Of a DNA stretch of 41,366 nt, positions 19,524 through 36,830 are shown in pieces; the stretch's first letter is position 1, and each line of letters opens with the position of its first letter. A program made the position numbers and the translations under genes. Source of the stretch: an uncultured Streptomyces sp. Lineage in GTDB: Bacteria; Pseudomonadota; Gammaproteobacteria; Burkholderiales; SG8-41. Under the pieces are notes generated by a model. The model ran no database searches. It was not told the DNA's origin and saw only the letters and a list, made by a program, of their open reading frames with translations. The stretch lies in NCBI GenBank assembly GCA_964625665.1, contig CAZVDN010000003.1, positions 1 to 41,366 on the forward strand, in the 5' to 3' direction.

Positions 19524-19549
19524 GAAAACCCCTCGTACGAGGGGTTTTC
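19524..19549 (-). terminator. Rho-independent terminator after the upstream pilin gene
   Basis: Perfect 26-nt palindrome GAAAACCCCTCGTACGAGGGGTTTTC. On the minus strand it is followed by TTTAT. It starts 24 nt downstream of the pilin stop codon. Confidence 0.7.
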
Positions 19550-19572
19550 TCACTGCTATTGCAATTCGACGC

Positions 19573-20055: not shown

Positions 20056-20071
20056 AGCAATTCTTATGCCA
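20056..20071 (-). promoter_or_regulatory. Sigma54 (RpoN) -24/-12 promoter for the upstream pilin gene
   Basis: Minus strand reads TGGCATAAGAATTGCT, against the consensus TGGCAC-N5-TTGCW with correct GG-N10-GC spacing. It lies about 65 nt upstream of ATG 19992. An AT-rich tract at about 20150-20215 sits where an enhancer or IHF site would be expected. Confidence 0.6.
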
Positions 20072-20287: not shown

Positions 20288-21064
20288 TTATTCAATCACC
20301 ACCGCAACGGAATAATGCGAAGAAGCAAATCCGATGTAACGGTAATTCAGCTGATGCGAATCGATAAATTCCTGAAATGCACGGAATTCGTGCTCACGCC
20401 ACGACGGATAGTTGAGGTATTCGTCAAAAACAATGACGGTTCCTTTGACGATACGCGGCGACAGCAGATTCAAAACCGTTCTCGTCGACGAATAGATATC
20501 GCAATCGATGTGAATAAAACGCGCACACTCCGTTTGCTCCGCCAAAAATCCGGGCAGCGTATCTTCGAACCACCCTTTGCAAATGCGGATATGGGGTTCG
20601 CTGAATTCCGGCACCACGCCATTCAACGTGAACCTTCCCTGCTTCTGAAAGCTGGTCCAGTCTTCGGGCAATCCCTCGAATGAATCAAAGCCGACAATCT
20701 CCTGCTGCACGCGCTTCGCGATGAATCGCAACGACTCACCGCGGAAGACGCCGAACTCCATCACGAGACCGTCGACTGTGCACGCACCCAAGGCAAAATC
20801 AAGCAACTCGGCGCGCCCCCTCAAATTCTGCGCGCCCATCATGTGCTTGACCATGTAATCCGCTGCCTCGGCGGCGGCCTGCAATCTGGCAACCAGTTCG
20901 TAATCGACACCGGACGGATGGGCCAGCGGCTGACGTAAAAACTGGCCCAGTGCGACGTGGACTGCCCGTGCAATTTGCTCGTCGCCGATGGAAGGCACCG
21001 GCGCCGTCGGCACGGCATTGCCGGAGAGCGCGCGAAAAACACGCTTTATCAGATTGCCAATCAC
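20288..21064 (-). CDS. TylF/MycF-like class I SAM-dependent O-methyltransferase
   Basis: 258 aa, GLVMEFGVFRGESLRFIA ... GFDSFEGLPEDW ... FIHIDCDIYSSTRTVLNLLSPRIVKGTVIVFDEYLNYPSWREHEFRAFQEF, the macrocin-O-methyltransferase family pattern. GTG start. Confidence 0.75.
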   Translation of the reverse strand: MIGNLIKRVFRALSGNAVPTAPVPSIGDEQIARAVHVALGQFLRQPLAHPSGVDYELVARLQAAAEAADYMVKHMMGAQNLRGRAELLDFALGACTVDGLVMEFGVFRGESLRFIAKRVQQEIVGFDSFEGLPEDWTSFQKQGRFTLNGVVPEFSEPHIRICKGWFEDTLPGFLAEQTECARFIHIDCDIYSSTRTVLNLLSPRIVKGTVIVFDEYLNYPSWREHEFRAFQEFIDSHQLNYRYIGFASSHYSVAVVIE

Positions 21065-21185
21065 ACTGATCCGCCCGTCTGTTTCATTCGAGTTTCAAAC
21101 GCTACCGCACTTTCACGGACAAATACACCCCTGGCCGGAAAAACCGTGCGTCAGAAAAAGTCAGCATCAAAAATCTGCAATGGCG

Positions 21186-22928
21186 TTACCGGTGCGCAAC
21201 CGCGTCTGCAAGCTGCGCTGCAATTTCTGCAATCACCGCATCCCATTCGCCCGCTTTTCTCTGGCGAAACATCCTGACGCTCGGGTACCAGGGCATGGAT
21301 GCACCGCTATCCAAATAGCGCCATTCCGCAACCGCCGGCACCATGACCCATGCGGCGCGGCCCAATCCGCCGGACAGGTGCACAACAGACCCGCAAACCG
21401 TAATGACCAGATCCAGCGATGCAATCAAGGCGGCCGCCTCGTCGAGATCTGCCGCAACCGATGGAAAATGCATCAGCGGAACCGATTCGCGCGCCGCGAA
21501 TTCCATCACCTCATCGGCAGCGGCGTCATGTTGCAGGCTGACAAAACCAACGCCGGGCGTCTTCAGGATCGGCAGCAATTGATGTAAGTCCAGGGAGCGC
21601 TGCGACCGACGGGTAGACATCATGCCGCCGCGCCAAGCGATGCCGACCTTTAACTTCGCATCGCCTGCATTCAGTTGACGGCGCCAGTTTTCTGCACGCG
21701 ACGGATCAGAGCGCAAATAACCGTTGTGCGCAGGAAAGTCGCCCGGCGCATTTCTGAAAATGCGCGGCAGACTTCCTGCGGCAATTTGAAAGTCGATCTG
21801 CCCGACTGCCTGCACCCATGACGCATCACCACCGGCCTGCTCAACACCGCGCACAACGGCGTCCGGAAACGTCCGTGCAAACAAGGCCTCGAGCTTCGGC
21901 GAACAATCAATGAAACAGCGTGCCGCTTGCCTGATCACCTCTCCGAAACAGGAGGCGAACATGATTTCGTCGCCCAACCCCTGTTCGCCGTAGACAAGAA
22001 TCGACTTGCCGCTCAGCGGTTCGCCGTCCCACGCCGGAAACCTGTAAGGGCGGGGCAAGTAGTTGCTGCGTGTTGCCTTGCGCGCTTCGTAGTCCTGCCA
22101 ACCTTCGGCGAATCGCTGCCGCCTGAGCAACGCCAGCGCACGATTCAGGCGGGCTTCATTCATGTCCGGATACCGAAGCAGCAAATCGCTGCAAACGGCG
22201 ATGACCTCGTCGGTCCTTCCTTCCTGGTTCAATACCGAGCAGTAATTGCATCGGGCGGCGAAATCATCCGGATCCAGCCTGAGTGCCGTTTCGAGATGCG
22301 CGCGACCGCGTTCAAATTCACCGAGATCGCGCACGAGCACATAGCCGAGATTGCTTTGATAGCTCGCCTCACCGGGCTTCAGTTCAACTGCCCTCGAAAA
22401 AAATTCAGCGGCGCGCGCTGCATTGCCGCTCGCCAACCAGCAGGCCCCGATCAGATTGCATGCATCGGCATGATCCGGCTGCCTTTGCAACACCCCCATG
22501 GCGTAATCGATCGCCGCAGACAACTCGCCTTCACGCTGCGCGAGCAAGGCCAGATAGTAGCGAGGTTCAACGGCATTGGCCGAAAAATGCAACGCCATCT
22601 GCAAGCTGTCCGCCGCATCTTCCTTTTGCCCAAGTTTGAATTGAGCAATGCCAAGGCCGCAGTATGCTGAAGCATCGTCATGCCGCACATCGATTGCGGC
22701 TGCAAAGCAGGTCACTGCTTCGTCATAGGCCCTGCGATCCAGCGCGGCGTTGCCCGCTGCCTTCGCCTTATCCGCCGCTCGTGCACCATGCGCCTCTGCC
22801 TCCACCTGCTCGACAGAAGAACGTGGGACAGCGTGAGCAGGCACAGCGCCCGTCTGGCCCAGCAATCGCCCTGCCATTTTTTTCAGGAAGCCCAATGTCT
22901 GCCCAATGTATTCAAAGCGGCGATTCAA
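21186..22928 (-). CDS. TPR-repeat protein with C-terminal GT9-like (heptosyltransferase-fold) glycosyltransferase domain, paralogue A
   Basis: 580 aa. The N-terminal half is TPR repeats. The C-terminal half has ILVYGEQGLGDEIMFASCF, AAGSLPRIFRN, VGIAWRGG, ITVCGSVVHLSGGLGRAAWVMVP and MPWYPSVRMFRQ, which parallel the GDxxxxxP and DSGxxHLAAAxGxP motifs of WaaC/WaaF-type enzymes. The TTG start overlaps the stop of paralogue B. Confidence 0.7.
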   Translation of the reverse strand: MNRRFEYIGQTLGFLKKMAGRLLGQTGAVPAHAVPRSSVEQVEAEAHGARAADKAKAAGNAALDRRAYDEAVTCFAAAIDVRHDDASAYCGLGIAQFKLGQKEDAADSLQMALHFSANAVEPRYYLALLAQREGELSAAIDYAMGVLQRQPDHADACNLIGACWLASGNAARAAEFFSRAVELKPGEASYQSNLGYVLVRDLGEFERGRAHLETALRLDPDDFAARCNYCSVLNQEGRTDEVIAVCSDLLLRYPDMNEARLNRALALLRRQRFAEGWQDYEARKATRSNYLPRPYRFPAWDGEPLSGKSILVYGEQGLGDEIMFASCFGEVIRQAARCFIDCSPKLEALFARTFPDAVVRGVEQAGGDASWVQAVGQIDFQIAAGSLPRIFRNAPGDFPAHNGYLRSDPSRAENWRRQLNAGDAKLKVGIAWRGGMMSTRRSQRSLDLHQLLPILKTPGVGFVSLQHDAAADEVMEFAARESVPLMHFPSVAADLDEAAALIASLDLVITVCGSVVHLSGGLGRAAWVMVPAVAEWRYLDSGASMPWYPSVRMFRQRKAGEWDAVIAEIAAQLADAVAHR

Positions 22929-24628
22929 TCGACTTTGCGAAAGCCTGCCTGCCAGAGTTCAAGCGCCTGCGCAATATCCATGACGGTGTCGCTCCAGTCT
23001 GCGCCATGACGACGCCTGAAAATGCGCATCGTCGGATACCAGGGCATTGCCGTCCCTTCCCGCAGGTATCGCCACTCCGCGTTATGCGGCACCATCACCC
23101 AGACCGGTTTGCCGAGGGCCCCCGCAAGATGCGCGACGGTCGTATCGACGGTAATGATCAGATCCAGTGCTGACACAAGCGCAGCGGTTTCATCAAATGT
23201 TGCCTGTGCTTCCAGCCAATCATGCACCCGTGCATACGACCCCGCATTCAACACTGCCAAATCAGCTGTCCGATCCCCGTACTGCAGGCTGACAAAATTG
23301 ATACGTGGCGATGCCACCAGCAATTTCAATGCATCCGGTGCGACCGACCGAATTGCCTGATTGGTCGATTGTACGCCACCGCGCCACGACAGCCCGATGC
23401 TCGGCCTGTCACCAGTGGATGTATTGCGAAGACGTTCTTTCCAGCATTGCGTTGCAGCCGCGTCGGCCTGCAGATAGCCGGCTTCGGACGGAAAATCGCT
23501 CAGATTGCGTCGGTAAATTCGCGGCAGTGAGCCAGCTGCCACCTGGCAATCGATGGCCGGTTGCGACTGGAGATAAGTAAGATCGGGATTGGTCTGGTCG
23601 CCCACCGCAATGGTTGCGTTTTGAAAGGAGCGGCGGAACAGAGGCGCAAGCTTTGCAGAACACTCGATCACGCATTGCGGCGCATCCCGCAAAACATCGC
23701 GAAAACAGGAAGCAAACATGATTTCGTCACCGAGCCCCTGTTCGTGAAAGACCAGAAGGCGCTGCCCCGCAAGATCACCACCTGCCCATTCAGGATAGGG
23801 AAATTTCCTGACTGCAAACAACGGATAAACGCGCTTGCGCTCTTCGTAGTCTTCCCACCCTGGTTCATAACGACCGAGCGACAACAAGGCCAGCGCGCGG
23901 ATCATGCGTGGGTGCGTTGCCGCCGGATTGATTTCAAGCGCAGTATCGCATTCGCGAATGGCGTCTTCTGACTTCCCCTGAAACTGCAACAGCTGTGCGA
24001 GACAACTGTGCGCCTCCGCCAGTCGCGGCTGCAGTGACAAAGCCGTCCTCACGTAGCGCAGCGCCTGTTCATCATCCTGCGTATCGCGCAATGTCAATCG
24101 GCCCAGATTGCAGTAGGCAAGCGCGTGATCAGGTTGTGCGCGGACAACGGCCTGCCAATGTTCAATGGCGCGTCCGAACTTCTTGTCCGTTTCGCATAAC
24201 CTGGCCGCCATCGCATTCGCTTCGGCGTGAGCGGGGTCGCCCTCCAGGGCCCGTGCAATGGCGCGGCGCCCGCCCGCGTCGTCGCTGCGCGCCATTTCCA
24301 CCGCAGCGAGCTGACACCACGCATCCGCAAAATCGGGCTTGAAGGCGGTCGCAAGCACAAAGCCATCAGCGGCCGCCTCAAGATCGCCTCGCTTCTTTTC
24401 AATCAGCCCCAGCAGAAAATGCGCATCCGCAAAATCATGCTGCGCCTCCAATAGCCGCGCTAGCAGATCTGCCGCCGCATCAAATTGGCCCCGCCCGAAC
24501 AAATCTGCGGCGCGCTCAAATTCAGCCGCCTGCCCACCGACCGCGCCCCGCGTTTCCGGAAGCGCGTCTGCAGCCGGATCCGCAGTTCCCGGGGAATTAT
24601 TGAGCAGCCCCTTTAAGCGATCAAACAT
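22925..24628 (-). CDS. TPR + GT9-like glycosyltransferase, paralogue B
   Basis: 567 aa; LLVFHEQGLGDEIMFASCF, AAGSLPRIYRR, IGLSWRGG, ITVDTTVAHLAGALGKPVWVMVP, MPWYPTMRIFRR. Confidence 0.7.
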   Translation of the reverse strand: MFDRLKGLLNNSPGTADPAADALPETRGAVGGQAAEFERAADLFGRGQFDAAADLLARLLEAQHDFADAHFLLGLIEKKRGDLEAAADGFVLATAFKPDFADAWCQLAAVEMARSDDAGGRRAIARALEGDPAHAEANAMAARLCETDKKFGRAIEHWQAVVRAQPDHALAYCNLGRLTLRDTQDDEQALRYVRTALSLQPRLAEAHSCLAQLLQFQGKSEDAIRECDTALEINPAATHPRMIRALALLSLGRYEPGWEDYEERKRVYPLFAVRKFPYPEWAGGDLAGQRLLVFHEQGLGDEIMFASCFRDVLRDAPQCVIECSAKLAPLFRRSFQNATIAVGDQTNPDLTYLQSQPAIDCQVAAGSLPRIYRRNLSDFPSEAGYLQADAAATQCWKERLRNTSTGDRPSIGLSWRGGVQSTNQAIRSVAPDALKLLVASPRINFVSLQYGDRTADLAVLNAGSYARVHDWLEAQATFDETAALVSALDLIITVDTTVAHLAGALGKPVWVMVPHNAEWRYLREGTAMPWYPTMRIFRRRHGADWSDTVMDIAQALELWQAGFRKVD

Positions 24629-24629
24629 C

Positions 24630-26378
24630 TCAAACGCTGCGCTGCAGAAATTGCAGAACTTCGGTCACGACAGGGTCCCAGTCGCGCGGTTCGGCCTGAC
24701 GAAAAAGCCGCATGGTTGGATACCACGGGGTTGTCGAACTGCATTGCCCATAGCGCCATTCGGCGCTGTAGGGCAGCATCACCCAGGTCGGTCGGCCCAA
24801 CGCTCCGCTTAAATGCGCAACCGTGTTGTCCACCGTAATGACGAGATCGAGCGCGGCGATTGCGGCGGCCAGTTCATCGAAGTCCTGGCCGATATCGGAC
24901 ATGGCGTCATGAATTTCGATGCCGGTGCGCTCGCGGATCCGGTTTAACGTCTCGCGATGATCCCCCGCCTGCAGGCTGAAGAAATCGCAGCCCGGCGCGC
25001 CGGCCAGTCGTTCGAGTTCTTTGAAATCCAGCGAACGCAAGCGTTGGCGATTGCGCAATGTTCCGCCGCGCCACGCGATCCCGACGCGCATCCCCTGGCC
25101 ACTCGAAGCGCACCGTTCCCGCCACCGGCTGATTTTTGCCGGGTCGGCCCGCAGATAAGCAGCGGTTTGCGGAAACGAATTTACCGCCGGTCTGAATCGC
25201 ATCGGCAGGGACCCGATTGAAATTTCAAAATCAGCCGTAAGCCGCGCGGATGAACGCGCGTCGTCTGGACTTTGCTGCGGCACTACGATCGCCGCAGGAA
25301 AAGATCGCTGAAAAAGTGCAGTCAGCCGCGGTTCGCATGCCAGCGTGACCTGACTGGCCGCAGCTACCAGATCAGGCAAACAGGAGGCGAACATGATTTC
25401 ATCGCCGACCCCCTGCTCGGACAAAACGGCAACCGATTTTCCCTGCAGCATCTCACCACGCCAAACCGGCGCCCCGATGCTGCGGCGCTGTTTTCCGCCT
25501 GCCTCAAAGCGATTTTCGTACTGCGTCCAACCGTTTGCAAAATCGCCCTTGAGCAGAAGCGCAAGCGCGCGATTCGCCAGCGCGTCGCCAAAACCGGGAC
25601 GCAAACCGAGTGCGCGATCGTAATACGCAATCGCTTCTTCGATCCGTCCCAGGTCGCGCAATGCATGACCGGCACATGTCACCGACTCGACGGTTTCCGC
25701 CTGCAATTGCAGCGCGCGCGTGAAACTCCCAAGCGCTTCAGCCGCAAACCCGGTTTCGAGCTGCAGCAGGCCGAAATTATGGTGCGCCCTGTGCGACCCG
25801 GGAGCGGCGCCGAGCAGAACCTGGAAATGTGCAAAGGCATCGTCATACTGCCCGAGCCTGAACAGCACGAATGCCAGCTGCTCAAGTGCGCGAATCTCTG
25901 CCGGATCCTGCTTCCAGGCCACACGATAGGCTTCGGCAGCCTGTTCGAGTGCACCCCGCCGTTTGAGAATATTGCCCAGACAGAGCCATGCGCGCGAAGA
26001 AACGGGGTTGTCTGCGATCGCGCGACGGCACGCCGCCTCTGCGTCGGCATCGCTGCCGCACTCCAGCAAGGCTTCAGCGAGAGCCACCTGTGCCGTCGAA
26101 TTCTGCGGCGCAAAATGGGCTGCCAGCTGGTAACAGTCGAGAGCATCATCGCGGTCGCCGGTCGCCGCATAGAGATCGCCGCGCAGCAGATGGGCCTCAC
26201 CGCAGTCATGGCGCATTGCAATCGCCCGCTCAAAACACTCTGCCGCCCGCGCGTAATCATGCGCCGCAAAATAGTCACGGCCCGCCGCCAACTGGTTCGC
26301 CACCTCGACGTCTCGGGTTGATGTGCCGCTCGCCGATGGAGATTGCGCTGCGGTCAAATCCGGCTCCTGATTACTCAT
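24630..26378 (-). CDS. TPR + GT9-like glycosyltransferase, paralogue C
   Basis: 582 aa; VAVLSEQGVGDEIMFASCL, SIGSLPMRFRP, VGIAWRGG, ITVDNTVAHLSGALGRPTWVMLP, TPWYPTMRLFRQ. Its stop is 1 nt from the start of paralogue B. Confidence 0.7.
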   Translation of the reverse strand: MSNQEPDLTAAQSPSASGTSTRDVEVANQLAAGRDYFAAHDYARAAECFERAIAMRHDCGEAHLLRGDLYAATGDRDDALDCYQLAAHFAPQNSTAQVALAEALLECGSDADAEAACRRAIADNPVSSRAWLCLGNILKRRGALEQAAEAYRVAWKQDPAEIRALEQLAFVLFRLGQYDDAFAHFQVLLGAAPGSHRAHHNFGLLQLETGFAAEALGSFTRALQLQAETVESVTCAGHALRDLGRIEEAIAYYDRALGLRPGFGDALANRALALLLKGDFANGWTQYENRFEAGGKQRRSIGAPVWRGEMLQGKSVAVLSEQGVGDEIMFASCLPDLVAAASQVTLACEPRLTALFQRSFPAAIVVPQQSPDDARSSARLTADFEISIGSLPMRFRPAVNSFPQTAAYLRADPAKISRWRERCASSGQGMRVGIAWRGGTLRNRQRLRSLDFKELERLAGAPGCDFFSLQAGDHRETLNRIRERTGIEIHDAMSDIGQDFDELAAAIAALDLVITVDNTVAHLSGALGRPTWVMLPYSAEWRYGQCSSTTPWYPTMRLFRQAEPRDWDPVVTEVLQFLQRSV

Positions 26379-27976
26379 CGTTTCCCGAGCCCGTTAAGTC
26401 TAGCAGCCAGCGCTACCGATATCCCGGCCATCACGCCCTGCCAATCGCGCGCATGGGTCTGGCGAAAGAGTTTTACCGAGGGATACCACGGCATTGCGTC
26501 GCCCTCGGCCCGATATCGCCAGTCGGGCACACGGGACAACAGGGCAAAGCAGGGTTTGCCCAATGCGCCGGCCATGTGGACCACAGTATTGTCGACGCTG
26601 ATAGCCAGATCGAGTGCCGCAATCAGAGCCGCGGTCTCCTCGGTGTCTTCAAGGGCCTCAGGCCACCATTGCAACTCCAGACCGGCAGCACGCGCTGCCG
26701 CAATTTCTTCGCCGCAATCGCCTCGCTGCAGACAGACAAACCGGTGTTGCCTGAACGCTGCAAGCGGGAAACAGTCCTGAATATTCAGCGAACGCAAATC
26801 AGCGCGGGTTTTGCGCGTTCCGCCGCGCCAGCTCAACCCGATTGACAAGCCAGGGGCCGCGGCGAGGCGTCGGCGCCACGTTTCGATTCGTGCAGGATCG
26901 GCGGCGAGATACCCCCGATGCCGCGGAAAATTTTTTTCGTCATTGCGAAAAATCCCCGGCAGACTGCCGATCGCGATTTGCGATTGCAGCGCCGGGTAGC
27001 GCTGCAGCCAAGCGCGGTCGCCATCGCGCGCCGCGCCGTGCACGTGCACTGCCGGAAACGAGCGCGCGAACAATGTCGCCAGACGCGCATCGCATTCGAG
27101 CACCACGCCCGCCCCGCGGTCTGCCAGATCCTGTAGACAGGAAGCGAACATGATTTCATCGCCAAGGCCCTGTTCACCGTAGACCAGCACGCTGCCGCCG
27201 GCCGCTGCGGCGCCCTGCCAGACCGGCAGTCCGAAGTCCCGGCGCACGTCACGTCCGCCGCGCACGTGGCGCAATTCGTAATCCGGCCAGCCACGCGCGA
27301 AATCGCCATGCAGCAGATAAGCGAGCGCCCGGTTCCAGCGATATTCGACCATCCCGGGACTATTGCGAATCAGTTCGTCAAAATGCGCGATCGCCCGATC
27401 GTAATCGCCGCGGTCGAGTAATGCGAGACCGTAATTGGCCTGTGCCGCCACCGCCTGCGGATGGGCCTTGCAGGCGCGCTCGAAAAATGCACCGGCCACA
27501 ACAGCATCTCCAAGCTGCGACAGATAAACCAGGCCCAGATTGACCAGTGCACCAAGATGATCCGGCTCGGATCCAAGCAATTCACTGTAAGCGTGCATGG
27601 CGCCTTCAACATCCCCCCCGGCATTGCACGAGAGTCCGAGTTCGAACAGCAGTTCACCGTTATTGCCTGGCGATCGTGCGGCCGATTGGAGCAGGCGTAC
27701 TGCGGCGGCAACGTCGCCGGTCGCTCTCAACAGGCGCGCAAGCGCGCAGGCTGCGCGCGTCGAATCGGGATCCAGCGCGCGCGCCGTTTCGAAACAGTCC
27801 CGCGCATCTTCGAGATCACCGGTTTTCAGTGCACAGTCGCCCTGCCCGAGGAGAGCGTCGACGGAATCAGGCACCTCAGCGAGCACGCGGGCATACCACG
27901 TCGCCGCGGCAGCGAAATCACCCGTGGCGAGCAATGCGTTGGCCCTCGCCAGCGCCTCATCGCTTTGGCTACTCAC
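26375..27976 (-). CDS. TPR + GT9-like glycosyltransferase, paralogue D
   Basis: 533 aa; VLVYGEQGLGDEIMFASCL, AIGSLPGIFRN, IGLSWRGG, ISVDNTVVHMAGALGKPCFALL, MPWYPSVKLFRQ. ATGA overlap with paralogue C. Confidence 0.7.
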   Translation of the reverse strand: MSSQSDEALARANALLATGDFAAAATWYARVLAEVPDSVDALLGQGDCALKTGDLEDARDCFETARALDPDSTRAACALARLLRATGDVAAAVRLLQSAARSPGNNGELLFELGLSCNAGGDVEGAMHAYSELLGSEPDHLGALVNLGLVYLSQLGDAVVAGAFFERACKAHPQAVAAQANYGLALLDRGDYDRAIAHFDELIRNSPGMVEYRWNRALAYLLHGDFARGWPDYELRHVRGGRDVRRDFGLPVWQGAAAAGGSVLVYGEQGLGDEIMFASCLQDLADRGAGVVLECDARLATLFARSFPAVHVHGAARDGDRAWLQRYPALQSQIAIGSLPGIFRNDEKNFPRHRGYLAADPARIETWRRRLAAAPGLSIGLSWRGGTRKTRADLRSLNIQDCFPLAAFRQHRFVCLQRGDCGEEIAAARAAGLELQWWPEALEDTEETAALIAALDLAISVDNTVVHMAGALGKPCFALLSRVPDWRYRAEGDAMPWYPSVKLFRQTHARDWQGVMAGISVALAARLNGLGKR

Positions 27977-28017
27977 AGGTCCGCCCGTGATACCGGGTGC
28001 ATCGCGTGGCGAAGCCC

Positions 28018-28701
28018 TCAGACTTTGCCGCGTTGGTCAACGCGATGCATCGCCGCCAATTCACTACGCCATTCATCACCGTATTCGCAATCGCGAAACT
28101 CGTCAAAATAAGGCCCGCCGAGCGTGTAATGCACGAGTGACGCATTCTTGCGCGGCGCGCTGTAGCCGACCAGATGATTCCACGTCGGGGGAATTTCACC
28201 GATCGCGTCGTCATTGTTCAGCCACTTGAACTGATGGAGTTCGAGGCCCGAGGCCTTGTTCACATAGTCAGGCGTTAGCGCGCGGCATTTCGCGTTGTTG
28301 AACAGGATCACACTCGACCAGTTTTTCTTCTGATACGCGGTCTGCGGCTGGTCCAGAAATTTCACTGACTCCCTCGGCACATGGTCATGCTTGACGACCA
28401 TCGCGGCATATCGGTCATCGCACAGGTCAAACAGCTTCGCAATATCGTCGAGCACCAGCATGTCGCAATCCATGAATACCGACCAGCCCTCGTAGCCTGA
28501 CAAATAGGGCGTGAGGAACCGGGAAAAGGAAAAATCGGTGGACTGCAAAGGATGGCGCTCGCGCGTCATGACGCCCTGCAGTTGCGAAAGCATGATGGGG
28601 GCAATGGTGACCGGGCGGCTGGCGCGCGCATGAATGCTGTAGGCCAGCACGCTGAAGGCCAGCGCCTCCCGGGGGTCAAATCCGATGAATACTCTGATCA
28701 C
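28018..28701 (-). CDS. Small GT-A-fold glycosyltransferase (GT8-like, DxD = DCD)
   Basis: 227 aa; IRVFIGFDPREALAFSVLAYSI ... STDFSFSRFLTPYLSGYEGWSVFMDCDMLVLDDIAKLF ... WNHLVGY...LVHYTLGGPYF. The family assignment is from motif recall only. Confidence 0.55.
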   Translation of the reverse strand: MIRVFIGFDPREALAFSVLAYSIHARASRPVTIAPIMLSQLQGVMTRERHPLQSTDFSFSRFLTPYLSGYEGWSVFMDCDMLVLDDIAKLFDLCDDRYAAMVVKHDHVPRESVKFLDQPQTAYQKKNWSSVILFNNAKCRALTPDYVNKASGLELHQFKWLNNDDAIGEIPPTWNHLVGYSAPRKNASLVHYTLGGPYFDEFRDCEYGDEWRSELAAMHRVDQRGKV

Positions 28702-30542
28702 GATGTTTCAGCCTTGGTTGATTGGGCCCGCCGGCCACACCAGTCTTTCCAGACTGTCCTGTATGCGTCTTCCAGATTGCGCGTAAAACGACCTGCGTCA
28801 GTCAAGGGCGAGTTCAGCATGCGCTGCCGCAAACTGCTCCGCAATTCAGCCATTTTGCCGATATTTTCCGCAAGATGGGTTGCAATATTGACATACTCGT
28901 CCTCGCTGCCGGCAATCAGTTCGGTCAGCCCGATGCTGGTGAGCATTCCCGTGGTGACCCGCGATGCATGCACCCGCCCGGACAGTGTGATCACCGGCAC
29001 GCCCATCCACAGCGATTGACAGGTGGTGGTTGTGCCGCTGAAAGGGAAAGGGTCGAGCGCAATATCGATCCGATGATGCATGCGCAAAAATTCCTGCTGC
29101 GGCAGGCGGTCGTGCATCTCTAGCCGGGCAACGTCTATGCCATGCGCTGCAAACAAACCCGCAAGGCGTTCGCGGGTGCGACCGGCCGGCACTGTAACGA
29201 GCAGGAGTCCGGCCTCAGGCAACGCGTGCAGAATGCGCGCCCAAAGCTGCACGACCGGCGCGGATAGTTTGGATAGTGCATTCATGGAACCGAAAGTCAC
29301 CCGACCGTCGCGCGCAGCCGGCAAATCGCCGACCGGAGGGGCATCGGCGGGCGGGCAATAGACCATATAAACCTCCGGCAAACGCAGCAGTCGCTCGGCG
29401 TGAAAGTGATCGGTCATACCCGGCGGATCGACAACCGGATCACTGATTCGAAAATCCATTGCGGACATGCCCGTCGTGTTCGCATAGCCGTTCCAGGTGA
29501 TCTGCACAGGGGCGGGGCGCCGCGCGAACAACTGCAGCCGGTTGCGTTCGGTATGTCCGGTCAGATCGACCAGAATATCAATTCGATCGGCACGAATGCG
29601 TTGTGCCAGCAGGTCGTCGGAATCGCCCGAGCAGTCATGCCAGCTTCCGGCCGCCCGCTTCAGGCGTTCTGTCATTGCGTCCTCATGCTGCACGTCGGAA
29701 TAACACACCGTGTGAAACAAGCGCCGGTCGTGTGCGGCCAGAACCGATCCAAAAAAATAGGACACGGCGTGCTCACGGAAATTCGGCGAAACGTAACCGA
29801 TGCGCAATGGCCGCTCCGGCGTAGCATCGCAGTCGATCCCGGGGACGGCCAGGGTAAACGGCTCCGCATGCTGCCGTGCCCATGCCAGATGGGCATCAAA
29901 AACTTCTTCAGGGGTCAGCCCCGGTAAAAAATTCAGGGCGTAGACATAATTGCTGTGGGCAGCCACAAAGGAAGGCTGCAGCTCAATCGCGCGTCTGTAA
30001 CATTCGACGGCTTCGTCGCCGCGCCCGAGCTGATGGCAGAGATTTCCCAGATTGTAAAAAGTCTCTGCGGATTGGGGGGTCAGCTTTAACGCATTTCGGT
30101 AGGCATCTTCCGCGGCATCCGGCTCATTGGACGCCTTCAGGGCATTGCCCAGACCGAGATGCGCCTCGGCAAAACCGGGACGCAATTCGGCGGCGTGCGC
30201 AAAATGGGTCGCCGCATTCTGGAACTGACCGAGATTCGAACAGGCGGTGCCCAGATTGAAATGCGCCTCGGCTGATTCTGGCTGCAGTGCAATGACCTCG
30301 ATCAGCACGGCCACAGCCTCGGCGTGCCGGCCCTGCCGCATCATCAGGCTGCCGAGCAGGTGCAGTGCATCGCCGTCACGCGGACGCTGCAGCACCAAGC
30401 GCTTCAACAATTGTTCCGCGGCATCCAGTTCGGCGGAGTTCTGCAGTTCAATCGCACGGCCTAATTGCCCTTGCCACTGCTCATCCTGGGCCCGGCCATC
30501 GGGTTGGCGCCGGAATATCCGTGTAAGCAGATTCAGAAACAT
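28698..30542 (-). CDS. TPR protein with C-terminal GT41 (O-GlcNAc-transferase/SPINDLY-like) domain
   Basis: 614 aa. N-terminal TPRs (AEAHFNLGTACSNLGQFQNA..., AETFYNLGNLCHQLGRGDEA...). Then LRIGYVSPNFREHAVSYFF, DILVDLTGHTERNRLQLFARRPAPVQITWNGYANTTGMSAMDFRISD, TFGSMNALSKLS, IDIALDPFPFSGTTTTCQSLWMGVPVITLSG. It overlaps the GT-A gene by 4 nt. Confidence 0.75.
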   Translation of the reverse strand: MFLNLLTRIFRRQPDGRAQDEQWQGQLGRAIELQNSAELDAAEQLLKRLVLQRPRDGDALHLLGSLMMRQGRHAEAVAVLIEVIALQPESAEAHFNLGTACSNLGQFQNAATHFAHAAELRPGFAEAHLGLGNALKASNEPDAAEDAYRNALKLTPQSAETFYNLGNLCHQLGRGDEAVECYRRAIELQPSFVAAHSNYVYALNFLPGLTPEEVFDAHLAWARQHAEPFTLAVPGIDCDATPERPLRIGYVSPNFREHAVSYFFGSVLAAHDRRLFHTVCYSDVQHEDAMTERLKRAAGSWHDCSGDSDDLLAQRIRADRIDILVDLTGHTERNRLQLFARRPAPVQITWNGYANTTGMSAMDFRISDPVVDPPGMTDHFHAERLLRLPEVYMVYCPPADAPPVGDLPAARDGRVTFGSMNALSKLSAPVVQLWARILHALPEAGLLLVTVPAGRTRERLAGLFAAHGIDVARLEMHDRLPQQEFLRMHHRIDIALDPFPFSGTTTTCQSLWMGVPVITLSGRVHASRVTTGMLTSIGLTELIAGSEDEYVNIATHLAENIGKMAELRSSLRQRMLNSPLTDAGRFTRNLEDAYRTVWKDWCGRRAQSTKAETS

Positions 30543-30623
30543 GATCGGCCCGCACCGGCGTGCCGTCGGCGAAGATCGATAAAACGGCGCGCGGCAGGAA
30601 TTTGCACCGGGTCGCTGCGCGCT

Positions 30624-31274
30624 TTAACCGGAAACCTTCTCTTCACGCGCTTCACTGCCGTTCGGCGTCTCCTCGAGGTACTGGATCCAGAACTCCCATT
30701 GCACATCCGGATAGCCGGCAGCGGTGCGACCGACCAGCTCGCGCCACCAGTGCGGTGGCCTGATCGTGCAATGCGCGTTTTCTCCATTTGGCAGCCTTTT
30801 GCGCGCCGGAAAGCAGGCAACATTGGCAAATACGAACCGGTTTGCATAACCGAACAACTCGCCGATGATCCAGGGCAAGTCGGGCTCCGGGCAGTGCTCA
30901 AGGACATCGGTGCAAATGACCGCGTCGAACTTTCCTTCCGGCAACCGGCTGAACGGTTCATAACAGGGGTCATAACAAACCAGTTCGCCGATATCGAGAT
31001 AATCGATAACGCTCGGCCATACCTCGCCTGCTTCGTCCTTGATCGGTCGCGGCTCGTATTGCTGGCCCTTGCCGCAACCGTAATCCAGCATGGTATCGGC
31101 ACCGGTGAGCGTGACCAGGGCTTTGATCCGCGCCAGTTGCGCGTCAAGACTGAAACCCGGAAAGGTTTTTTCAGCCGGCACGCCCAGAAACTCCTCACCA
31201 CGCTGGTGCATCTGGCGATACATCGCCTGCAGTTCCAGAAAACGGGGGCTCGGATTGTTGCGATGATGGTTCAT
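30624..31274 (-). CDS. Class I SAM-dependent methyltransferase
   Basis: 216 aa. Motif I is MLDYGCGKGQQ. Post-motif region FDAVICTDVLEHCPEPDLPWIIGELF. Confidence 0.7.
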   Translation of the reverse strand: MNHHRNNPSPRFLELQAMYRQMHQRGEEFLGVPAEKTFPGFSLDAQLARIKALVTLTGADTMLDYGCGKGQQYEPRPIKDEAGEVWPSVIDYLDIGELVCYDPCYEPFSRLPEGKFDAVICTDVLEHCPEPDLPWIIGELFGYANRFVFANVACFPARKRLPNGENAHCTIRPPHWWRELVGRTAAGYPDVQWEFWIQYLEETPNGSEAREEKVSG

Positions 31275-31291
31275 TGCTTCGCCTTCAGAGA

Positions 31292-33055
31292 TTAAGCAGA
31301 CGCATCGCCGCGATCCGCGGACTCACACTGCGCCCGCAATGATTTTGCCACACCCTGCATGACGGGCTCCCACACACCGAACCCGGGCTGGCGGAACAGC
31401 CTTACCGATGGATACCAGGGCATCCTCTCGCCGCGAATACCATAGCGCCATTCGGGACTGTACGGCGTCAAAACCCACACCGGTTTTCCGAGCGCCCCGC
31501 CGAGATGGATCAGTGTAGTGCAGACGCTGATGACGAGATCAAGGCTCTCCACCAGTGCGGCGGCTTCATCAAGATCCTCCCGCGGTTCCTGCCAGCGATG
31601 GATGGTGACGCCGTGGGCCGATGCAGCGGCGGTCACCTCGTCACCGCAATCTGTGTATTGAAGGTCGATAAAATGCACGCCAGGCACCTGCAGTATCGCG
31701 CCCCATTGCTGCAACGGTATCGAGCGCATATAGGCACGCGTCTTGTCCGTTCCGCCGCGCCAGGAAATACCGACCTTCAGGCCCTTGCCAAGTCCATCAA
31801 GGCGTTGTCGCCATGCCGCAGCTTTCGCGACGTCGGCCCGCAAATAGCCGCAGTGTTCTGGAAAATCAGCCCCTGATCTGCGCCAGACTTTCGGCAGGCT
31901 GCCGAGCGCGATTTGCGCGTCGAACCGGTCCTCACCGCCTGCCGGCACCTCCGTCGCTGCCGCCCGCACTTCAGCACCCGGAAATGAACGACTGAACAAG
32001 CGGACCAGTTTGGGCGAACACTCCACCACGCATTTGTCCACGCTCGCGATCAGTTGCGGCAGACAGGCGGCAAACATGATCTCGTCGCCCGGCCCCTGTT
32101 CGCCGAAAACCAGCACGCGCGCTGCTGGCGCTGGCCTGGCATCCCACTGCGGATAGGTATCGGCGCGCTGCGGTCGGTCCCGGCTCTGTAAACGCAGGTC
32201 GTAGTGCTGCCAGCCGCGGGAAAAGTCATGCACGGTCAGGCAGGCGAGACTTTTGTGCCACTGTGCCAAATTCAATCCGGGATCTTCAGCGAGTGCCCTG
32301 TCGAAATACGCGATTGCCTGATCGACCTCGCCGGTCTCGCGCAGGGCGATGCCCAACTGCAGCAGGACTTCCGGATCGCGAGGCGCCGCCGTTTTGGCGC
32401 GCTCAAGATAATCCACTGCTGCGTGAGGTTGCTGAAGATGCAGCAGCACGTACCCGAGACAATACTGATATTCGGCGCCCCGGCCATCCTGCACATCCAG
32501 ATTCCGCAATAGCGCTTCCGCGCCGGCAGCCTGCCCGAGTTCGACTTTTTCCACGATGACGTTTTTGAGCAGCCCCGGCATCGCAGGTGCCAACTGTCGG
32601 GCCTTTTCGAAATGCGCCAGGGCCGCAGCATGATCGAACCGGCTTTGCGCAAGCAATCCAAGATTCAGGTAAGTCGGCGCACTGCCCGGATTGAGTTTGA
32701 GCGCGGCAGCGTAACAGCGCTCGGCAGAGTCCAATTCGCCCTTCAACAAATGAATATTGCCGAGCGCGTTGTGGGCGTCAGGCGAGCGCGGGTTCTCGGC
32801 AATCGCCACTGTCAGATGCAGCCTGGCTTCATCGAGTTTGTCGCAATGCCCCAGCAACATGCCCAATTGAAGGTGCGCTTCGGCGTTGCGCGGTTCGGCA
32901 GCGACCACACTGCGCAACTTCCTTTCCGCGACATCCCACTGCCCCGCGGCAAGCAAGGCGGCCGCTTCCGCGAGCAGGTTTGCCGATGAATGTTCTGCCG
33001 CGTCGGGCGACGCCGCTCGCGAGAACAGGCTTTTGATCAGTGATTTGAGGCTCAA
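31292..33055 (-). CDS. TPR + GT9-like glycosyltransferase, paralogue E
   Basis: 587 aa; VLVFGEQGPGDEIMFAACL, ALGSLPKVWRR, VGISWRGG, ISVCTTLIHLGGALGKPVWVLTP, MPWYPSVRLFRQ. It is the first gene of the minus-strand run. Confidence 0.7.
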   Translation of the reverse strand: MSLKSLIKSLFSRAASPDAAEHSSANLLAEAAALLAAGQWDVAERKLRSVVAAEPRNAEAHLQLGMLLGHCDKLDEARLHLTVAIAENPRSPDAHNALGNIHLLKGELDSAERCYAAALKLNPGSAPTYLNLGLLAQSRFDHAAALAHFEKARQLAPAMPGLLKNVIVEKVELGQAAGAEALLRNLDVQDGRGAEYQYCLGYVLLHLQQPHAAVDYLERAKTAAPRDPEVLLQLGIALRETGEVDQAIAYFDRALAEDPGLNLAQWHKSLACLTVHDFSRGWQHYDLRLQSRDRPQRADTYPQWDARPAPAARVLVFGEQGPGDEIMFAACLPQLIASVDKCVVECSPKLVRLFSRSFPGAEVRAAATEVPAGGEDRFDAQIALGSLPKVWRRSGADFPEHCGYLRADVAKAAAWRQRLDGLGKGLKVGISWRGGTDKTRAYMRSIPLQQWGAILQVPGVHFIDLQYTDCGDEVTAAASAHGVTIHRWQEPREDLDEAAALVESLDLVISVCTTLIHLGGALGKPVWVLTPYSPEWRYGIRGERMPWYPSVRLFRQPGFGVWEPVMQGVAKSLRAQCESADRGDASA

Positions 33056-33202
33056 TGGGTTCGTGGGTACGCTATTTGCGGCAGAACAGCAGCATTGCCG
33101 CTATTGACGTCCGATTTACTAAAAACAGATAATGCAACAATATATTTTTAAAGACAAATCAGGCTTGCGCCGCGTTTCCCGCGTGTGCGCATTTGGGCAT
33201 TA

Positions 33203-34042
33203 ATGAACATCCTGCGTCTGATTTTTTCGCCGTTTCGCGGTTCGGGCAGTAAAACACCCGCGGCATCGGCCGATTTTTCCAACCTGTCGCTCGAGCAATA
33301 TCAGGCGCTGGAACCCAATATGGTGGTCCGGGAGGGTGATACCGACGTGGTATTTTCCACGCCGAACCTGTTTACGCAGTTTCGGGTCGACTCTCTGCGG
33401 ACCAAGGAACCGGACACCATCGCCTGGATCGCCGGGTTTGAGCCTGAGGATGTGCTGGTGGATATCGGCGCCAACGTCGGCATGTATTCGATCTGGGCAG
33501 CCAAAACCCGCGGTGTGCGCGTATATGCGTTTGAACCGGAATCGCAGAACTTTGCGCTGTTGAACAAAAACATCGTGCTCAACGGACTATCGGACTATGT
33601 CGTCGCCTACTGCGCGGCCATCAGCGACGAGAGCAGTTTCTCCCGCCTTTACCTGAGCGAATTCAAGGCCGGCGGTTCCTGCCATACCTTCGGCGAAATG
33701 CTCGATCATCGCCTTGAGAAACGCGAGACCCCTTTGTCGCAGGGTTGCTTCTCGACCACCCTCGACGCACTGGTCGAACAGGGTGTAGTGCCGCTACCGA
33801 CCCACATCAAGGTCGATGTGGACGGCATCGAGCATAAAGTCATCAACGGCTGCCGCAAAGTGCTCGCGGATCAGCGCGTGAAATCCGTTCTGGTCGAAAT
33901 CAATACTAATCTCGAGCTTCACCGGAACATCATTCGCGATATGCGAGCGTTCGGCTTCGAGTTTTCGCAGTCCCAGGTTGATGCGGCGTTGCGGTCCGGG
34001 GGCGCATTTGCAGGAGTGGGCAATCATATCTTCCGGCGCTGA
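33203..34042 (+). CDS. FkbM-family methyltransferase
   Basis: VLVDIGANVGMYSIWAAKTRGVRVYAFEPESQNFALLNKNIVLNGL ... THIKVDVDGIEHKVINGC. The start is ATG 33203 (MNILRLIFSPF...) or GTG 33185. It is divergent from paralogue E across an AT-rich spacer. Confidence 0.75.
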   Translation: MNILRLIFSPFRGSGSKTPAASADFSNLSLEQYQALEPNMVVREGDTDVVFSTPNLFTQFRVDSLRTKEPDTIAWIAGFEPEDVLVDIGANVGMYSIWAAKTRGVRVYAFEPESQNFALLNKNIVLNGLSDYVVAYCAAISDESSFSRLYLSEFKAGGSCHTFGEMLDHRLEKRETPLSQGCFSTTLDALVEQGVVPLPTHIKVDVDGIEHKVINGCRKVLADQRVKSVLVEINTNLELHRNIIRDMRAFGFEFSQSQVDAALRSGGAFAGVGNHIFRR

Positions 34043-34076
34043 AGAACACGTCCTTTACCAGATCGCCAATGCGCCG

Positions 34077-34817
34077 ATGCGGGAGTATCCGTACGCGCAT
34101 TTTTACATCGACAATGTGTTTCCCGAGGATTTTTACAACCGCTTGCGGCAGTGCTGGCCTGCGGATGAATCGCTGGTCTCGCTGGCGGATACAGGGCGCG
34201 TGCCGAAGGGCGCCTATCGTGAACGGTTTATCCTGCCGTTCACTCAGTCGGAAGTTGCGAAACTCGATGATCAGCGGCGGGACTTCTGGACTGAATTCGG
34301 CAACTGGCTGCTATCGCAGCGCTTCATGCAGGCCGTCATCGACAAATTCGCGCCCTATGTGCGCGAACGGTTCGGTGAGGCCATGTTCTCGAACTATTAC
34401 TCCTCCGAGTCACTGGTCGTGCGCGACCAGACCAACTATGCAATCGGACCGCACACCGATGCGCCGCACCGCCTGCTTTCGATGCTATTTTATTGCCCGG
34501 ACGACGACAGCCGGCCGCACCTCGGCACCTCGATCTATATGCCGAACGATCCCGGCCTGCGCTGCGCGGGGGGCCCGCATTACCCGCATGATCGCTTCCG
34601 CAAGATCAAAACGATGGAGTACCGGCGAAATTCGCTGTTTGCTTTCATCAAGAACGATTACTCGTTTCACGGGGTGGCGCCGATCGGAACACAACCGGTC
34701 GGACGGGACGTGCTACTCTATGATATCCGCGTTCAGCAAAACGAGTCCGCAGCGCCAACGCCGCAGTCCGGCCTTGGGGTCGGCATTCTTAAACGGCTGA
34801 TCGGCAAAAGAAGCTAA
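34077..34817 (+). CDS. Hypothetical protein with a 2OG-Fe(II)-oxygenase-like HxD...H...R motif set
   Basis: MREYPYAHFYIDNVFPEDFY ... YAIGPHTDAP (HxD) ... YSFHGVAPI (distal His) ... GRDVLLYDI (Arg). ATG 34077 is chosen because the upstream part of the track ORF overlaps the FkbM gene. Confidence 0.5.
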   Translation: MREYPYAHFYIDNVFPEDFYNRLRQCWPADESLVSLADTGRVPKGAYRERFILPFTQSEVAKLDDQRRDFWTEFGNWLLSQRFMQAVIDKFAPYVRERFGEAMFSNYYSSESLVVRDQTNYAIGPHTDAPHRLLSMLFYCPDDDSRPHLGTSIYMPNDPGLRCAGGPHYPHDRFRKIKTMEYRRNSLFAFIKNDYSFHGVAPIGTQPVGRDVLLYDIRVQQNESAAPTPQSGLGVGILKRLIGKRS

Positions 34818-34840: not shown

Positions 34841-35164
34841 ATGGGTTTATTCGGATCCGTATCCGGCAAGGACATTGATGCTTTCGCAAAAACGCTGGCC
34901 CAGGATTTGGCCAAGCGTTACCCACCCGCACTTGACAAAGGCAGTGAACGCAAGATTTCGCAGAAGCGTTTGACCACCATTCTCGAAGACACATTTGCGC
35001 GCGCCGTCGATTTCAGGCGCCAGCACAAGCTCGGCATCTACAAGAAGGCGCGGCTGGGCAACACCTTCCGCTGGGAGCTGCAGGACATGGGTTACAGCGA
35101 GAAGTTCGTCGAACTGGCCACCGAGGGCCTGATCGTCTACATCACGAGAAAAGCCGACGCCTGA
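34841..35164 (+). CDS. Small hypothetical protein, no recognisable domain
   Basis: 107-aa ORF with ATG start, coding-like composition and no competing ORF. GGAG 8 nt upstream of the start. Confidence 0.5.
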   Translation: MGLFGSVSGKDIDAFAKTLAQDLAKRYPPALDKGSERKISQKRLTTILEDTFARAVDFRRQHKLGIYKKARLGNTFRWELQDMGYSEKFVELATEGLIVYITRKADA

Positions 35165-36820: not shown

Positions 36821-36830
36821 TGGATCAGCG

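Follow-up and report, generated by a model that had tools for sequence, protein, structure and literature searches.

What is the substrate of an island of glycosyltransferase and methyltransferase genes that lies directly upstream of type IVa pilin genes? This question is raised by a stretch of DNA from an uncultured sulfur-oxidising betaproteobacterium, which was analysed over its full 41,366 nt (GCA_964625665.1, contig CAZVDN010000003.1, positions 1-41,366, forward strand; hereafter the window). The island comprises a run of nine genes, g1 to g9, and two genes divergent from it; the neighbouring pilin genes are pilA1 and pilA2 (Table 1). Six of its products are soluble enzymes with the layout of OGT, an N-terminal superhelix of tetratricopeptide repeats (TPR) and a C-terminal glycosyltransferase (GT) domain of GT-B type. 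Five of these have a GT9 fold and one belongs to GT41. Their partners are a GT8-like GT-A enzyme, three S-adenosylmethionine (SAM) methyltransferases and a protein resembling 2-oxoglutarate (2OG)-dependent oxygenases.

The island is probably a protein glycosylation system of the OGT/FlmG type. Beyond this, we lean towards the reading that it is a pilin-accessory cassette, which would modify the adjacent type IVa pilin or pilins by direct glycosylation without an oligosaccharyltransferase (OTase). Such a route is favoured because cyanobacterial Ogt, a protein with TPRs and a GT41 domain that is judged to be cytoplasmic, is needed for PilA glycosylation (PMC9306852, PMC12288463). Direct glycosylation of pilin or flagellin by TPR-glycosyltransferases without an OTase is thus known already, and the new elements here are the proteobacterial host, the multi-enzyme array and a huge family of GT9-fold proteins.

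Linkage between the island and one clade of pilins

Pilin loci were collected from metagenomes in a scan with PilA1, which gave 80 loci (loci are cited by number, L001 and so on), and pilins with at least 700 nt of upstream sequence were counted. A TPR-GT9-fold or GT41 gene was found just upstream of 17 of the 25 pilins with at least 50% identity to PilA1 and of 0 of the 22 pilins with 30-50% identity (Fisher p = 4e-7). The linked pilin clade has the core GLTV..G(K/R)..GGSVT..G.ITI.G...VGT.V...LTPS. A GT41 gene also followed the pilin directly downstream in L007, L015, L017, L106, L107, L111, L123 and L126.

The same linkage was seen from the glycosyltransferases. A scan with one genome per species gave 79 loci, in which open reading frames (ORFs) were classed by BLASTP against the window proteins, and the family loci amounted to 84 in all. 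Among these 84, the last TPR-GT gene was directly followed by a pilin 55-70% identical to PilA1 in L002-L007, L009, L011, L015-L017, L020, L021, L024, L025 and L027; over the many loci in which PilA1 homologues directly followed TPR-GT genes, identity was 55-79%. In L077, the pilin was beside a TPR-GT gene in another arrangement. Genes for GT41, TylF or TPR-GT proteins were present on the far side of the pilin as well in L003, L007, L015, L017, L025 and L077. The labels Rhodospirillaceae, Methylococcus, Bordetella and Enterobacteriaceae that some of these metagenome-assembled genomes carry look unreliable, given that the flanking genes are 70-90% identical.

The close relatives L001-L006 and L166-L169 kept a common gene order: divergent FkbM, TPR-GT, methyltransferase, GT41, GT-A, several TPR-GTs, TylF, pilin, pilin. 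Their content varied within this order, with five to eight TPR-GT genes, extra GT41 genes, GT2-FkbM fusions and a second TylF gene beyond the pilins. In L001, a 296-aa gene took the place of g5. A protein of about 535 aa with weak matches to GT2 in its N-terminal part and to class I methyltransferases in its C-terminal part was encoded at L005:6312-7919, with equivalents in L002, L007, L012 and L169; it is not found in the window. This variable gene content between relatives suggests that the surface chemistry of the pilus is diversifying between strains.

Flanking genes were compared as a further view of this linkage. The upstream flank of ATPase, HD-GYP and orfY genes was common to many loci, and the downstream flank of the pilin-linked islands varied, being made up of Sox, MoaC/M48 or GT41 genes. 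The window itself carries SoxYZA at 16860-19031. Linkage of the island to Sox genes was considered and rejected, as pilin-linked islands without Sox genes were found in L007, L009, L016, L017, L024 and L107. The upstream flank served as a partial control. At 66-79% identity of the HD-GYP/ATPase flank, L009, L015, L017, L020, L090 and L107 had an island together with a 'group A' pilin, and L145 and L159 had no island, a pilin 45-47% identical to PilA1 coming right after the flank. Where flanks are comparably identical, the presence of an island therefore goes with pilin type.

A single relative, L091, carried a Wzy_C_2 gene of the PglL/TfpO type (L091:3-779). The pilin that directly follows this gene is 73% identical to PilA1. 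Since this gene is in the equivalent place, the slot can hold a classical pilin OTase, which suggests that the slot before the pilin holds pilin-glycosylation genes.

The sequence-only reading of this DNA had regarded the pilins as only a positional candidate for the substrate. That view proved too cautious, because dozens of loci show the TPR-GT genes following one pilin clade, and in several of them GT or methyltransferase genes flank the pilin on two sides. In the neighbourhood comparison that it had proposed, related islands adjoined pilins and not LPS-core (lipopolysaccharide) or flagellar loci.

A different arrangement was observed in L130, L133 and L158 (about 10500-13300). Here, the gene after a pilin 46-47% identical to PilA1 encodes about 650 aa and belongs to no clear Pfam family (one weak TPR match), and a gene for 286-291 aa was also present, whose L133 copy was scanned and is a GT2 glycosyltransferase. 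This arrangement may be another pilin-accessory cassette.

Pilin or another protein as substrate

A system of this kind could also act on a protein other than the pilin. The island would then be a cytoplasmic protein glycosylation and methylation system for a flagellin, an adhesin or intracellular proteins encoded elsewhere, and the pilin adjacency would reflect inherited synteny or shared regulation of surface structures in one lineage. We consider this fairly unlikely, but the OGT/FlmG-like architecture applies to it as well, and a number of observations weigh against the pilin as substrate.

First, the co-occurrence counts are not phylogenetically independent, because most of the linked loci are from related uncultured Burkholderiales/Betaproteobacteria with common flanking genes. 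Synteny could thus explain much of the signal. Second, pilins of the clade occur apart from glycosyltransferases. At L165:8989-10420, tandem pilins, one copy of which is 76% identical to PilA1, had no glycosyltransferase within 10 kb; the pilins may have been relocated, or the island may have been lost. This pair is in an unrelated context, among genes for efflux, GST and dehydrogenase proteins. Related pilins without an adjacent GT gene were also present in L088, L119, L122, L124 and L125. Conversely, L013 had an island without a pilin within 10 kb. Third, the TPR-GT9-fold family is not pilin-specific, because its distant members, which share no more than 40% identity and come from Acidobacteriota, Planctomycetota, Alphaproteobacteria and other groups, mostly had no pilin nearby and a few lay near flagellin. 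The latter amounted to 4 of the 84 family loci, all of them distant (L045, L050, L069 and L082). Fourth, Ser/Thr richness was tried as a mark of the linked pilin clade and rejected, with 25% in the clade versus 23% in unlinked relatives.

The main weakness of a pilin substrate is topology and timing. The Ser/Thr-bearing domain of the pilin is periplasmic after insertion by the signal recognition particle (SRP) and Sec, so that a cytoplasmic enzyme has a short window of action, which disfavours a Sec-exported substrate. Cyanobacterial Ogt faces the same problem.

Several points nevertheless speak for the pilin over a protein encoded elsewhere. GT, GT41 or TylF genes are on both sides of the pilin in several arrangements, with downstream flanks that differ, and island presence tracks pilin type where flanks are comparably identical. 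The PglL-type gene in the same slot of L091 points in the same direction, and cyanobacterial Ogt shows that action of a TPR-GT on a pilin is possible (PMC9306852). Furthermore, no flagellin, adhesin or autotransporter gene was found in the window.

Five TPR proteins with a GT9 fold

The products of g2, g3, g4, g5 and g9 are 533-587 aa long, and each combines TPRs at the N-terminus with a conserved domain of about 320 aa at the C-terminus. Pairwise identity among the five paralogues is approximately 35% over the full length; it is 27% for the TPR part and 43% for the C-terminal 320 residues. The C-terminal domain of g2 is 42-44% identical to those of the other four. The motifs EQGLGDEIMFASC, SWRGG, DLVI(T/S)V(D/C)xxxxHLxGALG and EWRY...MPWYPSxRLFRQ are common to all five.

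At the sequence level, the relationship of these domains to GT9 was marginal. The Pfam GT9 model (PF01075) scored 24.9 bits for g3, 20.0 for g4, 19.4 for g5 and 17.9 for g9 against a cut-off of 22, so that only g3 passed, and the matches spanned only about 35 residues. For g2, TPR matches were present and no Pfam GT9 match was found. The NCBIfam heptosyltransferase models gave 15-23 bits for the paralogues, compared to cut-offs of 134-467. Searches of the PDB with the five full-length sequences were swamped by TPR matches, and a PDB profile search with the C-terminal domains alone returned WaaF as the sole match (E 0.059).

At the level of structure, the match was clear. The AlphaFold model of full-length g3 (pLDDT, the model's predicted local accuracy score, 92.5) consisted of a TPR superhelix at residues 27-272 and a two-Rossmann GT-B domain at 290-566. 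Foldseek matched this model best to SPINDLY and OGT, and also to designed TPR proteins; because the TPR region dominated the search, it was not used to assign a catalytic fold, and the C-terminal domain was modelled alone (pLDDT 94.7). The top eight PDB matches of this domain were all GT9 structures, led by WaaF (1psw, E 4.5e-8, TM-score 0.59) and followed by a Veillonella GT9 protein (3tov) and WaaC (6dfe, 2h1h, 2gt1). The protein heptosyltransferase TibC (4rap, 4rb4) ranked below WaaF and WaaC, with E 3e-4 and TM-scores of 0.42-0.46.

Conserved residues agree with the fold in their positions. In the HMMER alignment, EQGLGDE was aligned with GPSWVGD of WaaF, and VDTTVxHLAGALGKP with NDSGLMHVAAALNRP. 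The Asp of the GD pair, which is aligned to the heptosyltransferase catalytic Asp, and the His of the donor motif were invariant in 70 family sequences. The first Asp of the donor-site motif VD(T/S) (ND-SG in WaaF) is Asp in g3-g5 and Cys in g2 and g9, and the same position is mostly Gln in the wider family. From the alignment, this Asp/Cys/Gln position may be a determinant of donor specificity.

The label 'GT9-fold TPR glycosyltransferase' is justified by the model of g3, and the labels 'GT9 family member' and 'heptosyltransferase' are not established for the paralogues. GT9 is therefore a fold-level assignment only, because the sequence scores are marginal and the fold match is clear. The sequence-only reading had listed five genes with TPRs and a GT9-like domain, and had proposed to check the C-terminal domains against GT9 and GT41 models. 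Its gene list stands for the fold and does not stand for sequence scores, where one of the five passed the Pfam cut-off; the GT41 assignment of g7 described below was unambiguous.

The variable donor residue also bears on whether the paralogues are enzymes at all. Most of the five could be catalytically inactive and work through their TPRs, as chaperones or as regulators that influence how stable the pilin is and how the pilus is assembled, since TPR proteins are common pilus assembly factors, many homologues are named PilF or TadD by JGI, and g2 and g9 have Cys in place of the donor-motif Asp. This is very improbable. The motifs EQGxGDE, WRGG and HL.GALG are invariant in the five paralogues and the 70 family members, which would be unexpected for degenerate domains; the D/C/Q position varies across the whole family; and the proteins lack the lipobox or signal peptide of PilF/PilW.

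The family is large. In a representative library, the GT9-fold domain was found in 38,393 clusters at E <=1e-10 and in 26,411 at E <=1e-30. Many family proteins of 1000-3100 aa carry two to six copies of the domain, natural fusions that resemble the tandem paralogues of the island; as such multi-copy fusions exist, the paralogues plausibly work together. Databases name family members 'tetratricopeptide repeat protein' or, at NCBI, 'tetratricopeptide repeat-containing glycosyltransferase family protein'. A search of a literature library found no paper characterising TPR + GT9-fold proteins, and a search for FlmG together with GT9 found nothing. A homologue search seeded with a flagellin-linked family member returned generic names only, and no FlmG annotation among them.

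Layout of the island and its other enzymes

The positions of all features are given in Table 1. The ORF map agreed with the sequence-only reading on an unbroken run of nine densely spaced minus-strand genes with short overlaps at 20288-33055. They would be transcribed in the order g9, g8, g7, g6, g5, g4, g3, g2, g1 (from 33055 down to 20288), and the intergenic gaps from g1 to g9 are 121, -4, 1, -4, 41, -4, 81 and 17 nt. A further ORF that overlaps g8 (30533-31201) had no Pfam match. The GC content of the island (0.52-0.64) was close to that of the flanks (0.55-0.66), with no clear anomaly, and recent horizontal transfer was rejected as an explanation.

Table 1. Coordinates of the island, its divergent genes, and the adjacent pilin genes and signals in the window.
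Feature	Position	Strand	Product or evidence
pilA2	19040..19459	-	Second type IVa pilin, 139 aa; Pfam N_methyl + Pilin
Intrinsic terminator hairpin, pilA1/pilA2 gap	19521..19550	-	RNA fold + U-run
pilA1	19573..19992	-	Type IVa major-pilin-type, 139 aa; Pfam N_methyl + Pilin; proposed substrate
Sigma54-type -24/-12 motif TGGCATaagaaTTGCT	20056..20071	-	Pattern search and direct sequence reading
g1	20288..21064	-	TylF-type (macrocin O-methyltransferase family) SAM methyltransferase; last of run
g2	21186..22928	-	TPR + GT9-fold glycosyltransferase paralogue, 580 aa
g3	22925..24628	-	TPR + GT9-fold paralogue, 567 aa; structure-modelled protein
g4	24630..26378	-	TPR + GT9-fold paralogue, 582 aa; TPR matches + alignment
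g5	26375..27976	-	TPR + GT9-fold paralogue, 533 aa; TPR matches + alignment
g6	28018..28701	-	Small GT8-like GT-A glycosyltransferase, 227 aa; DCD motif
g7	28698..30542	-	TPR + GT41 (OGT/SPINDLY-type) protein glycosyltransferase, 614 aa
g8	30624..31274	-	Class I SAM methyltransferase-like, 216 aa; LDYGCGKG motif
g9	31292..33055	-	TPR + GT9-fold paralogue, 587 aa; opens run
FkbM-family methyltransferase	33185..34042	+	Pfam Methyltransf_21 E 2.2e-13; divergent from g9, 129-nt spacer
Putative 2OG-Fe(II)-oxygenase-like	33978..34817	+	Weak Pfam + motifs; start codon uncertain, conserved sequence from ~34040
orfY	34841..35164	+	Conserved 107-aa protein, no Pfam match

The GT41 assignment of g7 was beyond doubt, with 183.5 bits for Pfam Glyco_transf_41 against a cut-off of 25 and several TPR matches at residues 26-204. 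Its PDB matches were SPINDLY (7y4i, E 4e-129, residues 84-607), human OGT (E 3e-108), Thermobaculum OGT (5djs, E 3e-107) and XcOGT (E 6.5e-40). Matches to the HMW1C/NGT type were weak (3q3e and 8j30, E ~1e-12; NCBIfam NGTferase, 45.6 bits).

The small glycosyltransferase g6 was the most conserved component of the island, at 54-96% identity across 19 loci. Its Pfam GT8 score of 20.6 bits was under the cut-off of 24.3; GT8 was the sole family match in 9 of 9 homologues, always under the cut-off. Single-sequence and profile searches of the PDB with g6 gave no match. The family matches weakly suggest a GT8-like GT-A enzyme.

Three methyltransferases and a putative oxygenase complete the set, as the sequence-only reading had described: two methyltransferases within the run, and an FkbM gene with an oxygenase-like gene divergent at its upstream end. 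g1 matched TylF (E 2.3e-16) and Methyltransf_24 (E 2e-13) in Pfam, and a TylF gene was in the same place before the pilins in L002, L003, L005 and L006. g8 had weak matches to Methyltransf_23/11/25 (E 3e-4 to 1e-3) and was kept at 46-97% identity in 15 related islands. The FkbM gene occupied the same divergent place in L001, L005, L010, L012, L020 and L025. The product of 33978-34817 matched 2OG-FeII_Oxy_3 at E 0.02, and its PHTD, FHGV and a downstream Arg were invariant in five homologues; a PDB profile search with it found nothing meaningful. The oxygenase label, taken from these motifs and this Pfam match, is putative.

Homologues of orfY (39-87% identity) adjoined TPR-GT genes in L007, L009, L010, L011, L013, L015, L017, L020, L021, L024 and L027. 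In L007, L011, L021, L024 and L027, orfY was beside a TPR-GT gene where the recovered sequence showed no HD-GYP/ATPase flank.

The search for membrane and export components was negative throughout. A hydrophobicity scan found no transmembrane segment or signal peptide in any island protein; the maximum 19-residue Kyte-Doolittle mean was at most 2.14, and each peak was within a Rossmann core. Among the ORFs at 19040-35164, there were no genes for nucleotide-sugar synthesis, a flippase, a polymerase, an ABC exporter or an initiating lipid-carrier transferase. No polytopic OTase of the Wzy_C or GT-C type was found in the island, and Pfam gave no Wzy_C match. The window also contained no heptose-pathway genes. 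An O-antigen, capsule, exopolysaccharide or LPS locus was rejected, since the island has no export or lipid-carrier genes. The lack of membrane segments, signal peptides and genes for nucleotide-sugar synthesis, flippase, polymerase, exporter and initiating transferase had been noted in the sequence-only reading and was confirmed with all ORFs accounted for. Its proposal of a cytoplasmic protein glycosylation system likewise fits the domains present and the TPR + GT-B architecture of the model, as well as the missing membrane and export parts.

These results also bear on whether the enzymes might make or modify a non-protein glycan (for example a glycolipid, an oligosaccharide that resembles the LPS core, or a cytoplasmic one), with the TPRs only scaffolding a complex. 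Heptosyltransferases of LPS are the best-known proteins with a GT9 fold, and sugars of LPS or of natural products are common targets of the Pfam families GT8, TylF and FkbM. Nonetheless, this explanation is improbable. No lipid-carrier transferase, flippase, polymerase, ligase, exporter or membrane protein of any kind is encoded in the island, and related islands are outside LPS and capsule loci. Moreover, all TPR-bearing GT41 proteins characterised so far, OGT, SPINDLY and cyanobacterial Ogt among them, modify proteins (PMC9306852).

Pilin genes and their expression signals

The island run ends 295 nt upstream of pilA1, where the sequence-only reading had counted 296 nt and had described a sigma54-driven pilin pair. 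The motif was confirmed at pilA1, where TGGCATaagaaTTGCT was located 64 nt upstream of the start codon, and was absent from pilA2, for which no -24/-12 motif was found upstream. The sigma54 pattern had two matches in the window compared to 0.14 expected. The other perfect match to TGGCAY-N5-TTGCW, at 16125-16140 (-), is inside the 5' end of a gene for an M48 peptidase with TPRs (BepA-like, 14726-16162); it may be a chance match or mark an internal or mis-called start region.

A terminator hairpin 3' of pilA1 (-28.3 kcal/mol, z = -6.3) was followed by a U-run, and pilA2 sits behind this strong terminator. PilA1 and PilA2 share 118 of 139 residues, and the differences cluster at residues 54-62, where PilA1 has KSTTDS and PilA2 has KASNDA. 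PilA1 carries a C-terminal Cys...Cys loop. pilA2 may thus be a variant that is silent or alternatively expressed and that differs in its potential for modification. Most relatives also have their pilin genes as tandem pairs.

Flanking operons

A minus-strand operon at 35186-41335 encodes a CHASE2 adenylate/guanylate cyclase, a protein resembling metallo-beta-lactamases and class II cAMP-phosphodiesterases, a GAF-MshEN-T2SSE protein and a GAF + HD-GYP protein. The T2SSE protein is a PilB-like ATPase of 797 aa. This gene content suggests a cyclic-nucleotide-controlled pilus motor locus. The block is kept beside the island at 66-90% identity in L010, L013, L015, L017, L020, L077 and L107. On the other flank, 11660-13243 (-) encodes a Ser/Thr protein kinase with a cyclic-nucleotide-binding domain, and a TusA sulfurtransferase gene comes next; both genes are kept in L005 and L169.

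Proposed mode of action

If the island is a pilin-accessory cassette, its TPR modules would bind the pilin polypeptide, by analogy with the TPR domain of FlmG and flagellin. The GT-B domains would then move single sugars from soluble nucleotide sugars of housekeeping supply onto Ser/Thr, with UDP-GlcNAc, GDP-fucose or ADP-heptose as candidate donors. The paralogues may serve different sites, donors or elongation steps; we infer such different roles because their TPR parts (about 27% identity) and GT parts (about 43%) have diverged to different degrees and the Asp/Cys donor-site residue varies. The GT8-like g6 could extend or prime the glycan, and the TylF, FkbM and class I methyltransferases could O-methylate the sugars. 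Modification would take place on the prepilin in the cytoplasm, ahead of SRP/Sec insertion, as for the substrates of HMW1C and TibC/AAH, which are glycosylated in the cytoplasm and then exported by Sec.

Comparison with known systems

The closest precedent is cyanobacterial Ogt. In addition to its requirement for PilA glycosylation, a mutant of its active-site Lys fails to complement, and ogt adjoins pilin genes in 38% of 201 cyanobacterial genomes (PMC9306852). A 2025 review gives the same Ogt/pilin picture for cyanobacteria generally (PMC12288463). Like g7, Ogt/OgtA (Synechococcus elongatus Synpcc7942_0051; Nostoc punctiforme OgtA) is a soluble TPR + GT41 protein with no secretion signal. 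The ogt gene adjoins the pilin gene, and g7 is in a cluster directly upstream of pilA, with GT41 genes of relatives directly flanking the pilin. Unlike the cyanobacterial case, the GT41 gene here is one of eleven genes in a betaproteobacterium, and the dominant enzymes are the five GT9-fold TPR paralogues with the GT8-like protein, three methyltransferases and the oxygenase-like protein. The statement of the sequence-only reading that known pilin O-glycosylation is periplasmic and lipid-linked was too strong and incomplete in view of this precedent (PMC9306852).

In Caulobacter FlmG (596 aa), the TPR domain binds flagellin and the GT-B domain sets donor specificity (PMC7591256; bioRxiv 10.1101/2022.03.25.485807). 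Compared by description, FlmG and the island paralogues have the same two-module TPR + GT-B build, similar size (596 versus 533-587 aa), cytoplasmic location and no OTase, and some distant members of the present family are beside flagellin genes. The differences are in substrate and donor. Flagellin leaves by the flagellar export apparatus and not by Sec, and FlmG uses pseudaminic or legionaminic acid from a linked pathway, whereas no NeuB/PseI, LegI or flagellin genes were found in the window or in close relatives.

WaaC and WaaF are the best structural matches and share with the paralogues the GD motif and the donor-site motif D(S/T)G..HLA.A.G.P. They differ in that sequence identity is 11-14%, the present proteins add an N-terminal TPR region and sit outside an LPS-core locus, and their acceptor is presumed to be a protein. 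TibC/AAH (the BAHT enzymes) have a GT9-related fold and place many single sugars in O-linkage on Ser in the cytoplasm before Sec export. TibC, however, has no TPR, forms an iron-containing dodecamer, and is encoded next to an autotransporter gene, of which there is none here. HMW1C/NGT enzymes are GT41 proteins that attach single hexoses to a secreted adhesin in the cytoplasm before its export by Sec, but they lack canonical TPRs and form N-linkages at NX(S/T) sequons, and g7 is far closer to SPINDLY/OGT.

In genomic arrangement, the island resembles the cassettes of pilin alleles and accessory genes in Pseudomonas aeruginosa. PglL/PglO of Neisseria and TfpO/TfpW of P. aeruginosa likewise involve accessory genes next to pilA that are co-inherited with pilin alleles, and target type IVa pilins. 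These are polytopic membrane enzymes that use a lipid-linked glycan in the periplasm, in contrast to an island without membrane segments or genes of a lipid-linked pathway.

Implications

To our knowledge, outside cyanobacteria, pilin glycosylation in Gram-negative bacteria has been described as periplasmic and OTase-dependent. If the pilin reading is true, soluble TPR-glycosyltransferases glycosylate type IVa pilins in Proteobacteria too, which would be a second route. It would also sharpen the question raised by cyanobacterial Ogt of how a cytoplasmic enzyme modifies a domain that ends up in the periplasm.

A broader and more tentative proposal, which we hold to be possible and somewhat doubtful as a whole, extends this to the family. 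TPR-fused GT9-fold proteins, which fall into at least 26,000 clusters at 50% identity, may be a very large class of enzymes that O-glycosylate proteins in the cytoplasm. Members of one clade, in arrays of five to eight paralogues and together with partners of the GT41, GT8-like and methyltransferase types, would write a strain-variable pattern of single and methylated sugars onto the type IVa prepilin before Sec export. Such arrays would form a second, OTase-independent pilus route in Proteobacteria that evolves as swappable pilin-plus-enzyme cassettes.

The pilin linkage would give a first functional handle on the huge TPR + GT9-fold family. Its modular acceptor-binding and donor-specific enzymes could serve glyco-engineering, as proposed for FlmG. 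For the organisms themselves, abundant sulfur oxidisers of groundwater and sediment, a pilus coat that varies could influence attachment to surfaces and susceptibility to phages.

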